Below the pieces are notes generated by a model. The model searched no databases and was not told the DNA's origin. It worked only from the letters and a program-made list of their open reading frames with translations. Shown piece after piece: positions 14,057-58,087 of a stretch of DNA of 64,000 bases. Source of the DNA: Eledone cirrhosa (Eukaryota); the NCBI GenBank assembly GCA_964016885.1, contig OZ024743.1, positions 318,804,001 to 318,868,000 of the forward strand, read 5' to 3'. The translations under genes were made by a program, and so were the position numbers. Every line of letters begins with the position of its first letter. Position 1 is the first letter of the stretch.

Positions 14057-14651
14057 AATATGGTTTTATAAATATAGTTTCCATTTATTTAATATCGTAA
14101 ATATACTCCAAATACTTGTTGAGTGCTTTTATATCAGTTATAAATATTTACTAGTTGTAACCCAACAATTTAAATATAACTTTCCATGTATATATAAATA
14201 TATATATAAATATATATATATATATATAAATATATATAAATATATATATAAATATATATATATATATATAAATATATATAAATATATATATATATATATA
14301 AATATATATATATATATATAAATATATATATATAAATATATATATATATATATAAATATATATATATATAAATATATATATATATAAATATATATATATA
14401 TATATAAAAATATATATAAATAAATATATATATATATATGTATATAAATATATATATATAAATAAATATATATATATATGTATATAAATATATATATATA
14501 TATATATATATATATATATATATATATATATATATATATATATATATATATATATTATATAAAAGCGAGATAAACACAGATATAAACATGTGTTCAAATA
14601 TAAACATATATGTGTTCTGAGATACTTAGAAGTGAAGGGTTTACTAATTTT

Positions 14652-14730
14652 ACACCCACTGATGAGCAAAGAACTTGTAATTACCTTCGCTAAAATTGCG
14701 AAACAGCCATACCAAAAGCTGTCTGTGTGT
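14652..14730 (+). ncRNA. Type I hammerhead ribozyme with full stem III and GUC cleavage triplet
   Basis: acaccca-CTGATGA-gcaa...ttgc-GAAA-cagc-cataccaaaa-gctg-TC-tgtgtgt; stem I 6/7, stem II gcaa/ttgc, stem III acagc/gctgt; lies in TA-flanked island 14556-14982. Confidence 0.88.
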
Positions 14731-14997
14731 CTGGCAGTTGCCCAATATCGGTTTGTATTTCTTTTCTTAATTTATTGTTTTAAATTGAGTCTGGCAAACC
14801 CTATTGTTCATACTTAGTATTTTTTTAACCCTAGCGAATCTGTTCCCTTACGATTTGAACACATATCTGTGTTTACCCCTCTTTTATATTCAATTATATT
14901 ACACGGCTCAGAAAAACCTCTTTCTTTGAGCTATTTAATTGTAAGAGACTATTTTGAGTTTCTAACTCAATATATACTTTTGATATATATATATATA

Positions 14998-16858
14998 GGA
15001 CCACCAACAAGACCCGTATGCGGAGCTAATATAGCTAGCAACTACAGGATCTCCTACTTCCTCTCGATGGTTATACGCCCCATAATCAAGATGTTCCCAG
15101 ATGTATGTGACAGTACAGAGGACCTCCTCAGCAGAATCAGTGAGTGCAACAAAAACAGGAACCTATCCAACTGCATAATAGGCAGCATGGATGTGGTATC
15201 ACTGTACCCATCCATTAACATTGATTTTGCTGTTGAAAAATGTGTGGAGATGATCATTGAGAGTGAAGTGGAGTTCTGCGACGTCGACACAGACGAACTG
15301 GGCCTCCTACTTAGACTTACCTACGACACTGACTACCTAGACAGCCATGACCTTAGACGTTTCTCGCTTAGTAGACCCATAAGAGGTAGACCCCCCACCA
15401 TAACCTCCATGGCAAAAAAGACTCCCATGGGAAGGTGGATTGGGTGGACCAAAGCTATACGCCCCCCCCCCCAAAAAAAACAATGATCAGGTAAGAAAAA
15501 TGGTCGCACATGCAATAGGGGCTAGTATCAAAACTACCCTAAAGAGCCACATATTCAAGTTCAACGAGAAGATCTACACCCAAAATGAGGGAGCAGCCAT
15601 TGGCGTCAGCATAGCTGGTGATGTTGCCAACCTTTTTATGGTATGGTGGGAAAGGAGACTTAAAGATCTCTTTAATGAGAGCTCCATAGACCTCATCATG
15701 TACTCTCGTTACGATATCAATATAGTTATAAGAACATCCCCACTAGAGAGCACTAACAAGTTTGATTTAGAACATAGCACAATGGAAAGCATCCAGCAGA
15801 TAGCTAATTCCATACACCAGAGTATAACTGTAACTATCGACTACCCTTCCAAACACCCTAACAATAGACTACCTGTATTAGACACGGAACTCTGGATTAA
15901 CACTATAGACGAGAGAGCCCAAATTCTCCACTCACACTATGCTAAACCCATGACCTCCAAATACCTGATACTCAAAAACTCAGCAATGTCCAGTAGTGCT
16001 AAGTTTAATATTCTGATCGCAGATTTGGTACGATTGATGAAGAATGTGTCCCGCATGTGCGACCCAACAGAAATGGAAAGACACATCCAATACTTCATCA
16101 ACCGCATGCAGTTCTCTGGCTACAACCAAAGAGACAGAGTCAGAGTATACGAAGGAGCCATGGAGAAGTATAAGACCCTCATAGAACTGGACATGAAAGG
16201 AATTTTCCCATTATACAGGAGCAAATCCTGGAATAGCTTAGATAGGGCTAGACATAAGATAGGGAAAGACACTTCATGGTACGACAACCAGAGATACCAG
16301 AGTGTCATGTTTCTGGATGCTACCCCTGGAGGGAAATTAGCTAACCAGTGTAGAAAGGCCCTGAGAAACCCACTTAAAGATTAAGGTGGTAGAAAAGCCA
16401 GGAACCACCATAAAATCCCTGATCAGCAAAACCTACCCTAAAAGAAAACCCACTGTACTAATAGGAAATGTATCATATGTAAGGTAAACCCCCGGATAAA
16501 CTGTAAAACTAGAAACGTAGTCTATAGCATAAGATGTACAGAGGGTACTTGCAGAAACATGACAACAACATACATAGGCGAGACAGCTCGTAGCATAGGT
16601 GAAAGGATAGACCAACACTGGGGGGAACTAAAAAGACGAAAAAACGGATCAGTACTATACGAACATGCCAGACAACAACACGACGGTAACATAGACAACA
16701 TAGAAATTAGAATAATATCTAAACATAGAAATGACCCAGCAGATAGGCAAATCAGAGAGGCCAGTGAAATAGAACTTAGAAGGCCAAGAGTAAACAGAAA
16801 GAATGAATGGAATAACAACAACACCCAAACAAACAACACTGACCTAAGAGAAGTATAA
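14998..16858 (+). pseudogene. PLE reverse transcriptase + GIY-YIG endonuclease ORF, disrupted
   Basis: IIGSMDVVSLYPSI; QNEGAAIGVSIAGDVANLFMVWW; YSRY-DIN (catalytic RYxDD apparently lacks two codons); DYPSKHPNNRLPVLDTELW; HYAKPMTS; linker CTNRKCIIC...C; NVVYSIRC...YIGETARSIGERIDQH...RQIREA...N. Frameshifts near 15470, 16375 and 16445. Confidence 0.93.
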
Positions 16859-17157
16859 ATAAATAAATAAATAAATAAATAAATAAATAAATAAATAGAT
16901 AAATAAATAAATAAATACATACACAAGCACAATAACAACAAACACATATAAACACACACTAGTAAAGATAGAATACATTAACCAATACACAGTCACCCAA
17001 TCACGAACACACATCAAACAAAACACTATACACACACGCAAACGGATGCGTAAAGAAGACAAAATAAACTAAACAAACAAGCAAACAAATAAATAAATAT
17101 ATAAACAGACTAAATAAAGATGGCGTAGACATACAATGTAACGGGAGGAAACAATAG

Positions 17158-17201
17158 CACCACTGACGATGTTGCAGATGTGCAACGAAAGAACTTTGAT
17201 A
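17158..17201 (+). ncRNA. Degenerate minimal hammerhead in the PLE 3' region
   Basis: cacca-CTGACGA-t-gttgca gatg tgcaac-GAAA-gaac-TT-tgata; stem II is a perfect 6 bp, stem I is eroded. Confidence 0.7.
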
Positions 17202-55400: not shown

Positions 55401-57276
55401 TATATATATAATAAATGTATGTGTACATATATATATATATATATATATATATATATATATATATATATGTATGTATAAATATATAAATGTATGTATATAT
55501 AAATATATAAATGTATGTATATATAAATATATATAAATATATATATATGTATGTATATATATATATATATGTATATGTATGTATATATATATATATATAT
55601 ATATATATATATATAAATATATAAATATATATGAATACATATAAATATAGGCGTGTGTGTGTATATATAAATATATATATTTATGCATATGTATATATGG
55701 ATTTGTATACATACATACATATATATGGAAATATATATATATATATATATATATATATATATATATATATATATATATATATATATATATGTATGCATAT
55801 GTAGATATGTATGTATGTATGTATGTATGTATACATATCCATATATACATATGTATACATACATATATATACACACACACATACACATACACATATATAT
55901 ATATATACATACACACACACATACACACATATATATATATATATATATATACAGTATATATATATATCTGTATATGTGTGTATATATATGTATATATAGT
56001 ATATATATCTCTATATATGTGTGTGTATATATATATATATATATATGTGTAAATATATGTATATATAAGTGCATATATATATATATACATATATATATGT
56101 ATATATAAGTGCATATATATATATATACATATATATATGTATGTGTATATATATATATGTGTGTGTGAATATATATATATATGTGTGTGTATATATGTGT
56201 CTATATATATATATGTGTGTGTATATATGTGTCTATATATATATATATATGTGTGTGTGCATATATGTGTCCATATATATGTGTGTGTATATATGTCTCT
56301 CTCTCTCTCTTTCTCTCTCTCTCTCTCTCTCTCTCTCTCTCTATATATATATATATATATATATATATATATATATAAATGAAAGGTATAGAAAAACTGC
56401 AGCGAAATATATATGTGTGTGTGTGCGTATATATATATATATATATATATAAAGAGAGAAAGTGTGTATGAGAGTAGGTAGGTAGAAGGTGAAGAGGGAG
56501 GAGAATGGCGGACAAGCTCATAACCAGACAGATACATACCATATGTATGTGAGAGGTGTGTTGGGGATGGGTGGGTGGTTATCACACACTAGCACTACAT
56601 ATGAAATTGAAGACAATCGAGGATAGGGTGGCCACCCTGTTACCAGACGTTGTATATATATATATATATATGTTTATGCGTGTCTGTATTATATATATTC
56701 TCTGTCTCTCTCTCCCCCCTCTCTCTCTCCCCTCTCTCTCTCTCTCTATATATATATATATATATATATATATTATATACACACATATATATATATATAC
56801 ATACACATATACACACACACACACACACACACACACACACACACATATATATATATATATATTTATTAAAATAACAGATTAAAGTTTAAGCAAAGAATCG
56901 CTGCTTTCACCCTTAACGAGCCCTCTGGATTTTAGTCTTCAAATTTATTATTATTACTATATATATATATATATATATATATATATATATATAAACAAAC
57001 ATAAATTATCGAGATTCGCATTTCGGCCCACGAAATAACGGAAAACAACCTCAGATGTGCGGCAAGTGCTCAATAATTCAGATGAACCAGAGCTATAACA
57101 AACGTTAAAGGCCAAACACACTGAGACGATGGTTAAACAATCATTCGCATAGCCCCACCCCAAAAAACGATCAAGTAATTCGGGTATTGAAAATTTATAT
57201 ATATATATATATATATATATATATATATATATATATATATAATATAAGATCAAAAGATGGTTAAAGGAGTTCCATG

Positions 57277-57346
57277 TATTTTATTATGCGCATTTCAAAA
57301 ACAAACATCATCATGCAATAATATTTGTGTTTTCATCAGATAAAAC
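57277..57346 (-). ncRNA. Minimal hammerhead (family B, inverted arm)
   Basis: Minus strand ttttat-CTGATGA-aaacacaaatattatt...tttgtttt-t-GAAA-tgcgca-TA-ataaaa. Confidence 0.82.
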
Positions 57347-57467
57347 AGGAGAACATGATATGAAGGCTAAAAAAGTCTTGTGGATAGTGCAGTTTTAAAT
57401 CAACATATATGTTGATTTAAAACTGCACTATCCACAAGTGTTTTTTAACCTTCATATCATGTCTTCC

Positions 57468-57538
57468 TATTTTATCTGATGAAAACACAAATATTATTGC
57501 ATGATGATGTTTGTTTTTGAAATGCGTATAATAAAATA
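57468..57538 (+). ncRNA. Minimal hammerhead (family B)
   Basis: tattttat-CTGATGA-(long stem II)-GAAA-tgcgta-TA-ataaaata; stem I 8/8. Confidence 0.82.
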
Positions 57539-58087
57539 CATGGAACTCCTTTAACCATCTTTTGATCTTATATTATGTATACTCCAGTCCTACAAACTGT
57601 AGAGTGCTTCTTATCCGATATCTGCATTGCTTTATTGTACTACAATAAAACTCACCTCCTACATATATATATATATATATATATATATCACCCACTCGGA
57701 CCCTCGGATTATCATTGGACTACTTTTGGATATCCCTCGGATTAGCTACGTATTCCGATTCTTGGTGCTTTTTGAATTACATTCGCAACACCAATCTTCC
57801 GCGACCCATCATCTACTTTGCTCTCCCTTTTGTTTCTATCTACTTTGCATCTATCTCCACCGATCCCAACCCCACCATACTCAACCAGAAATTCTTCCTC
57901 TCCTCCCTAAAAGTCTACCTCACCTCTTCCCCCACTTCTGCATGCAGCCCGCACCCCTCACCTCGACCCCTCACCCGCACGCCATACCACTTCCCCGCCC
58001 GTCACTATTCCCCCTCTCCTTTTTATTTTCTTTCTAATTTTATTAATTTTTTTTTATCTTTTATTCTTTGCGCTTTTCCTTTTGTGT

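Follow-up and report, generated by a model that had tools for sequence, protein, structure and literature searches.

Paired bulged hairpins mark the two end sites of Hydra-clade Penelope-like element insertions in the genome of Eledone cirrhosa

The stretch analysed here (the window) comprises 64,000 nt of the Eledone cirrhosa genome (assembly GCA_964016885.1, contig OZ024743.1, positions 318,804,001 to 318,868,000 of the forward strand) and carries short insertions of Penelope-like elements (PLEs) that contain a small conserved hairpin. An earlier note on this DNA had placed the motif ACTC-N11-17-GAGTRCT at six positions, and a pattern search returned exactly these, with spacers of 11–17 nt: 14105, 33160, 44074, 57581 and 60707 on the plus strand and 39644 on the minus strand, with no further site of the strict motif in the window (Table 1). 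Five of the six sites lie in insertions that run, between two (TA)n tracts, from an inverted arm through a sense arm to a tail. The copy at 60707 lacks its own inverted arm, and the arm at 44069 borders on a mixed TA/CA tract. The arms pair exactly up to 14099, 33154, 44069 and 39649, as the note had it, and up to 57576 where it gave 57575. The interval of 4–5 nt from arm stop to ACTC is borne out when TA microhomology is counted as part of the element, and the distance from the last base not assignable to the TA tract is mostly 6–8 nt. The description of the carriers as unrelated families fails, however, because the six sites represent four families of a single clade, the Hydra-clade PLEs: 14099 and 33154 belong to one family (B, 87% identical) and 57575 and 60707 to another (K, 96% identical). 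The conservation of the motif is thus to be understood as conservation under selection, not as convergence.

Table 1. PLE insertions and hairpins in the window (positions are those of the 64,000-nt stretch).
Feature	Position	Strand	Remarks
Truncated Hydra-clade PLE insertion, family B	13731..14191	+	inverted arm, sense arm, tail; (TA)n flanks; family tied to a 741-aa Hydra-type open reading frame (ORF)
Hammerhead-like core (CTGAAGA...GAAA) in sense arm	13999..14054	+	106 nt before hairpin 1; pattern match only
Hairpin 1, family B	14105..14127	+	ACTC/GAGT base, 3-bp upper stem, TT bulge, trailing GCT; arm stops 14099
Variant hairpin GCTC/GAGC	14906..14931	+	5-bp upper stem, TT bulge, without trailing RCT; separate element ~14555–14983 without ORF link
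Second family B insertion	32796..33238	+	palindrome and tail
Hairpin 1, second family B insertion	33160..33181	+	TC bulge; arm stops 33154
Family G insertion	39585..39885	-	palindrome with spacer and 66-nt tail; family tied to a Hydra-type ORF ~41% identical to L113
Hairpin 1, family G	39622..39644	-	4-bp upper stem, 1-nt T bulge; arm stops 39649
Family I insertion, relative of L113 element	43996..44135	+	82% over 79 nt
Hairpin 1, family I	44074..44096	+	TT bulge; arm stops 44069
Solo PLE end between (TA)n tracts	56994..57195	-	GCTC/GAGC-ACT hairpin 57093–57065; absent from the earlier note; family without ORF link
Family K insertion	57239..57662	+	palindrome and 89-nt tail; hammerhead-like core from 57476; family tied to ORF
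Hairpin 1, family K	57581..57608	+	4-bp upper stem, TA bulge; arm stops 57575–57576
Family K copy without own inverted arm	60531..60788	+	hairpin 1 at 60707–60734

All four window families (B, K, G and I) are connected, on sequence evidence, to Hydra-clade PLE ORFs; for family I the link is the DNA identity between the family at 44069 and the pseudo-long terminal repeat (pLTR) of element L113. A single ORF encodes a reverse transcriptase (RT) with a C-terminal GIY-YIG endonuclease (713 aa in L113 and 741 aa in L233, with a GIY-like motif at residues 602 and 634 by motif pattern). The RWK-type motif appears as RWR at residues 37–38 and DK[T/S] stands at 113–123 in place of DKG, while the pattern RW[KR]A found no match in L253, L254 and L306. 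A CxCX5C linker, CxxC and CxH are present in L113, L233, L238 and L242, and CCHH was not seen by eye in L113 and L233. Assignment to the Hydra clade was made by such motif patterns, the signatures being those listed in Craig 2021 (PMC8557442), with likeness to published Hydra reference proteins judged by eye. Between families the proteins are mostly 39–58% identical over long alignments, lower values coming from short, broken ones, and the closest named relative of a window PLE protein is from Octopus vulgaris (66%). BLAST found no similarity among families B, K, G and I in the DNA of pLTR and tail. A hammerhead-like core pattern occurs in the pLTRs of families B, K, G and L113, with no Rfam hammerhead there among the best 150 of 339 matches. 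Insertion into (TA)n was found for the carriers in the motif-blind, protein-selected and junction samples alike. A young Hydra-clade family (L111–L140) has many intact ORFs that are 99% identical in protein, which suggests that it was recently active, and more than 1.4 kb of TA/TG repeats in its 3′ untranslated region.

The motif is a bulged hairpin of the form RYTC-Y/loop/R-TN-GARY-RCT, consisting of a 4-bp base, a 3′ bulge of 1–2 nt that begins with T, an upper stem free in sequence and, usually, a following RCT. A descriptor of this pairing matched 43 times near TA/CA tracts and once in reversed DNA. When the bulge was set at 2 nt, the first upper pair was Watson–Crick at 24 of 31 metagenome sites and 19 of 30 sites from the genome itself, compared with 2–5 in other registers; the metagenome sites were non-redundant and passed a sequence-only filter without pairing, and both sets include some mis-registered and chance rows. 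Without any pairing filter, 60 of 93 cells were paired across the metagenome sites (shuffled maximum 47). In an alignment of 30 metagenome hairpins, chosen in part by the pairing descriptor, the first upper pair was UA in 17 and CG in 13, and none of 500 shuffles scored as high. The basal pair is A-U in this genome and G-C elsewhere. The covariation that the earlier note had proposed looking for is present as compensatory pair changes in the stem.

A covariance model built from the 30 metagenome hairpins (partly descriptor-chosen) ranked 44066, 14097, 57062–57101 and 33152 top, and on the sense strand the same model did not recover 57581, 60707, 39644 and 14906. Among the best 150 of 339 Rfam 15 matches in the window, mostly microsatellites hitting microRNA models, none covered a hairpin. 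Hairpin 1 lies 71–107 nt after the start of the hammerhead-like core and has an interior of 8–24 nt. Hammerhead stem III, where actc-n-gagt also occurs in some Hydra elements, was rejected as its identity by position and loop size; in the published supplementary table (File S2) stem III directly follows the catalytic-core GAA and has a loop of 1–2 nt.

Hairpins of the same kind were found in a set of 78 Hydra-type loci from metagenomes, ~40% identical to L113 and several of them from one source organism. Here, 67 non-coding matches fell in 46 of the 78 loci, compared with 13 in the reversed and 13 in the antisense control, and mostly lay 71–102 nt after the hammerhead-like core. By eye, published coral and sea-cucumber Hydra consensi also contain it: of the six published Hydra consensi, three carry the full hairpin (Hydra-2_Amil, Hydra-1_Ajap with two copies, and Hydra-2_Ajap), Hydra-1_Amil and Hydra-1_Crog carry a partial one, and in Hydra-1_Obim none was seen.

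Genome-wide (3.0 Gb), the motif followed by (TA)6 gave 52,448 forward matches against 1,024 in the reversed control, and the refined motif 167,087 against 1,701. A scan blind to the motif covered the window and 800 kb from six contigs and collected palindromes with one arm abutting (TA)n. It returned 87 rows, of which 46 had tails of 29–148 nt (mostly 64–92 nt), 38 of these outside the window; rows with tails of 0–12 nt or above 200 nt were excluded from the tally. The strict motif was present in 19 of the 38, in every case 5–9 nt from the last non-TA paired base. About nine more carried variants by eye (GCTC/GAGC, GTTC/GAAC or long loops), and the remainder belonged to other PLE groups or to no assigned family.

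In several metagenome elements two hairpins lie 57–83 nt apart. Among the metagenome end rows (n=33), seven copies stop 1–5 nt short of hairpin 1 and five no more than ~4 nt short of hairpin 2; the others are ends of contigs, the same junction seen again or divergence between families, with L207 and L200/L202 unexplained. These paired hairpins predicted a second hairpin after the tail in the E. cirrhosa elements, and it was then found: full-length copies of family B continue past the tail end into GCTC...GAGC-GCT, and a second hairpin is present in families B and K and in the commonest family. A double-hairpin pattern matched 2,351 times in the genome against 375 in the control, with a spacing of 78–94 nt. 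Full-length copies usually have the second hairpin, 57–94 nt downstream of the first and ~30–80 nt before the ORF.

Most insertion ends fall just before one hairpin or the other. In 1.33 Mb of partly motif-selected DNA, 113 of 133 mapped (TA)n junctions precede a hairpin by 6–9 nt, and of 21 junction groups 19 agree with a ruler of 6 nt. Microhomology to (TA)n at the junctions averages 3.2 nt against a background of 0.49 and reaches at least 2 nt in 17 of the 21 groups. At protein-selected loci, family B ends lie at −5 (once −7) from hairpin 1 and −3 (once −5) from hairpin 2, and in the L113 family six copies end at one site and three at a second. When both ends of an insertion were paired, 45 of 46 pairings had one end at each site, in a count that contains one duplicate and some loose pairings and misses two window insertions; in unselected DNA the figure was 25 of 25. 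As in the tail concept of Frangieh 2024 (PMC11167929), two fixed genomic end positions thereby bound a one-sided extension. Since ends stop before one hairpin or the other, with one of each kind per insertion, the PLE tail is the interval between the two hairpins.

Both kinds of arm use both sites. Family B has 8 and 6 inverted ends and 6 and 13 direct ends at the two sites; tail-bearing inverted ends number six in family B and three in the L113 family, and six family B direct ends have no tail. The earlier note had read the motif as a cis signal defining where the inverted arm joins the (TA)n target. A cis signal for the junction is upheld: it keeps the same position whether samples were unselected or chosen by protein, and compensatory changes preserve the hairpin amid diverging flanks. 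It is not specific to the inverted arm, however, and its second copy, at the far end of the tail, was out of the note's sight.

Two individual loci bear on these sites. L065 (G000 C1 ~2,541,700–2,543,400) is an ORF-less, retrozyme-like tandem element of ~560 bp with a hammerhead-like core, and it keeps both hairpins, at its two ends. In L039 (8150–8450; G000 C4 ~318,956,150) a (TA)n tract of ~90 nt stands exactly at site 1 in a palindromic insertion, separating arm from hairpin; it could stem from slippage, from two insertions or from the element's own site having been cut again.

The reading that we favour, with moderate confidence, is that the leader of the element RNA carries a pair of hairpins, that ends form ~6 nt before each, and that each hairpin likely docks one RT on the RNA while each strand of the cut (TA)n primes at one of the two sites. 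The RT-endonuclease, probably as a pair, would bind the CUC/GAG helix with its UN bulge and 3′ RCU, and the endonuclease would cut both (TA)n strands. Through ~3 nt of pairing with the UA-rich linker immediately 5′ to a hairpin, each 3′ end could then prime cDNA towards the 5′ end of the RNA. Joining of the two cDNAs head to head would yield an inverted arm, a direct arm and a tail at one end only, its length equal to the hairpin spacing. The insertions display directly the hairpin shape, its two copies, the fixed distance, one end per hairpin, the TA microhomology and the use of both sites by both arms; for these, two equivalent RT docks on the RNA would be the simplest account, in which binding, strand and stoichiometry are presumed. 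The hairpins thus likely mark where the copying enzyme starts, which would account for the one-sided PLE tail. The proposal fits the behaviour reported in vitro for PAc, a Poseidon PLE of Anolis (Frangieh 2024, PMC11167929), where both strands are cut and extended, two internal RT starts bound the tail and a dimer is predicted.

Several observations weigh against this proposal. The pairing count is loose in the ways given above, and in one palindrome interrupted by TA both ends may belong to the same site. No canonical hairpin accompanies the fixed second site of the L113 family; hairpin 2 of family G is degenerate, with an insert of ~85 nt, and when the canonical form was sought there by pattern, the 7 matches were incidental. 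Under the hairpin descriptor 32 of the 78 metagenome loci had no match. Past the first pair, the upper stem of hairpin 2 is weak (32 of 69, against a shuffled mean of 26 and maximum of 36). Strand tests favour neither RNA nor DNA: G-U and A-C pairs number 14 and 9 (p=0.40), and the sense and antisense strands fold about equally at most window sites. For PAc, initiation is reported at a site that lacks homology to the cut DNA (PMC11167929), unlike the microhomology seen here. Finally, many short insertions are near spacer-less palindromes, which are also compatible with fold-back synthesis.

The hairpins might instead act in DNA, as cDNA or as extruded duplex, with the GIY-YIG endonuclease recognizing them, cutting ~6 nt away and resolving a longer intermediate at either site. 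Craig 2021 (PMC8557442) considered endonuclease-mediated resolution the most likely origin of the tail, and Frangieh 2024 (PMC11167929) cites earlier work in which the D. virilis tail was needed for endonuclease recognition of plasmids. The lack of a G-U excess in the hairpin pairs, the (TA)n tract exactly at site 1 inside one copy and the near-dyads GAGTACT/GAGTGCT would suit such recognition as well. However, the RT starts of PAc in vitro coincide with the tail ends (PMC11167929), a bulge that is offset, together with an upper stem that covaries without fixed sequence, is ill suited to a duplex-DNA site, and recognition of DNA alone leaves the one-end-per-site rule unexplained; we consider this explanation unlikely. 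Fold-back synthesis, in which a single priming event at the tail end is followed by synthesis on the cDNA that halts at hairpin 1 and joins the other flank, would produce the near-perfect palindromes seen in many short insertions, and palindromes at inverted junctions were interpreted as self-priming in PMC3846280. It predicts, however, that the tail always lies on the longer arm, which families B and L113 contradict, and it does not explain the same hairpin at both sites. Because the tail can sit on the short arm, fold-back alone is insufficient; as the only route it is disfavoured, and as an explanation of the data we regard it as improbable.

Regulation in the 5′ leader was also considered, with the hairpins controlling translation or RNA stability and the ends set only by the TA-like linkers that precede them. 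The position of hairpin 2 before the ORF and the strong microhomology are what it would predict, but TA-rich runs are common in leaders and yet the ends cluster at 6–9 nt, and the element without an ORF has both hairpins at its ends, making this very improbable in our judgement. The earlier note had itself named mere shared ancestry as the alternative, in which related families inherited motif and spacing neutrally. Ancestry is indeed common, all linked families forming one clade, but families B, K, G and I lack DNA similarity in pLTR and tail, their proteins have diverged while the stems changed in compensating pairs, and the motif persists in the coral and sea-cucumber consensi. Compensatory change across phyla refutes neutral ancestry as the whole explanation, and we give it next to no credence. 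The favoured reading, of two RT docks on the RNA, extends to a wider proposal that we hold at slightly less than even confidence: PLEs would use programmed twin priming, with two tandem docking hairpins, one per RT protomer, a telomerase-like alignment patch ~6 nt upstream, both strands of the cut microsatellite priming at once and a tail equal to the dock spacing, the dock possibly reaching beyond the Hydra clade, given the similar hairpins of two Chara Chlamys consensi and an apparent Naiad counterpart (both below).

Other PLE groups were met in and outside the window. The RT-GIY-YIG fragment at 14998–16858 was rejected as a partner of the hairpins by its CX4CX2C linker and CCHH-type residues (Neptune/Nematis-like, by eye); it is part of a 5′-truncated, frameshifted Neptune/Nematis-like PLE at 14998–17408, whose relatives have a 57–59-nt tail and two fixed ends without an RYTC hairpin. 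Five ORF pieces from the window matched no Pfam family. In a Poseidon-like element elsewhere the motif was not seen by eye. A palindrome at 31815–32395 has identical arms of 186 bp, a 72-nt tail without the motif and a spacer with a weak Rfam match to hammerhead HH9 (minus strand, 32020–32091, below the gathering score). Further palindromes without the motif lie at 12891–13286, 42408–42928 and 44464–44742, the first with a 44-nt tail resembling that of the Poseidon-like element just mentioned. Among consensi seen in the supplement of PMC8557442, Chlamys-4_cBra and Chlamys-6_cBra from Chara, of a distant clade with an N-terminal endonuclease, have by eye the same hairpin shape at their 5′ ends (GCTC/GAGC or GCCC/GAGC base, 5-bp upper stem, TT bulge). 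At least five Naiad consensi from molluscs, hemichordates and fish (same supplement, by eye) share a different motif near their start, GCTGGTGGA...TCCCC.AG, possibly the Naiad counterpart of the hairpin.

Inverted repeats with a one-sided tail are known in PLEs, the sister group of telomerase, and their origin was called an open problem (PMC8557442); Frangieh 2024 located two start sites without a conserved determinant (PMC11167929). With an RNA element of ~25 nt repeated at a constant distance from both ends, the mechanism can be tested directly, and because a young family has intact ORFs 99% identical to one another the system should be reconstitutable. The hairpin also offers a simple tag for locating the ends of this family, whose motif has ~167,000 copies genome-wide, and for recognizing ORF-less elements likely mobilized by the carrier system.

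In L1 twin priming both target strands prime cDNA, giving an inversion; the second primer acts at variable internal sites and the arms are not known to be duplicated. Here, in contrast, repeated RNA elements fix both sites, and the two arms duplicate each other in inverted orientation. Telomerase RNA combines a primer-alignment region with stems that anchor the RT, and by analogy a short simple-repeat primer would here anneal to a few bases of template kept at a set distance from a stem bound by protein; no repeat addition takes place, and the likeness is one of analogy only. The PLE RT is sister to TERT (PMC8557442). With PAc (PMC11167929) the elements share two fixed starts with the tail between them, an AT-rich target, a site downstream of the hammerhead or hammerhead-like core and a stem-loop context. 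In PAc, however, both sites lie in one AC-rich stem-loop inside the ORF, the tail is 30–40 nt and the published description reports no template–target homology, whereas here each site has its own bulged hairpin on its 3′ side, upstream of the ORF, tails are ~60–95 nt, TA microhomology is the rule and each site takes one end. The Hydra clade of Craig 2021 (PMC8557442) shares with them the protein motifs, the (TA)n target, a truncated copy in inverted orientation and a tail on one side, and its hammerhead has a likely counterpart here in the hammerhead-like core pattern; its members are usually <3 kb, compared with 3.7–4.0 kb for family B units (3,724–3,998 nt in seven copies), and no conserved tail hairpin was found described in the text available. 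Non-LTR (long terminal repeat) retrozymes are ORF-less tandem hammerhead elements from PLE pLTRs (PMC7229834; bioRxiv 10.64898/2026.07.22.740005), for which the available texts describe no such hairpin, and one retrozyme-like element here has both. The literature already covers tails, inverted pLTRs, targeting of (TA)n and the two start sites (PMC11167929, PMC8557442, PMC3846280), so that the earlier note, which named no earlier description of the signal, was anticipated in part, as regards a tail between two RT start sites in a stem-loop (PMC11167929). For the paired hairpins, their fixed spacing and the one-end-per-site rule, no description was found in the literature searched, which lay outside Repbase and most subscription papers. 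The hairpin is thus a real and conserved cis element, apparently undescribed so far, within a known kind of system.

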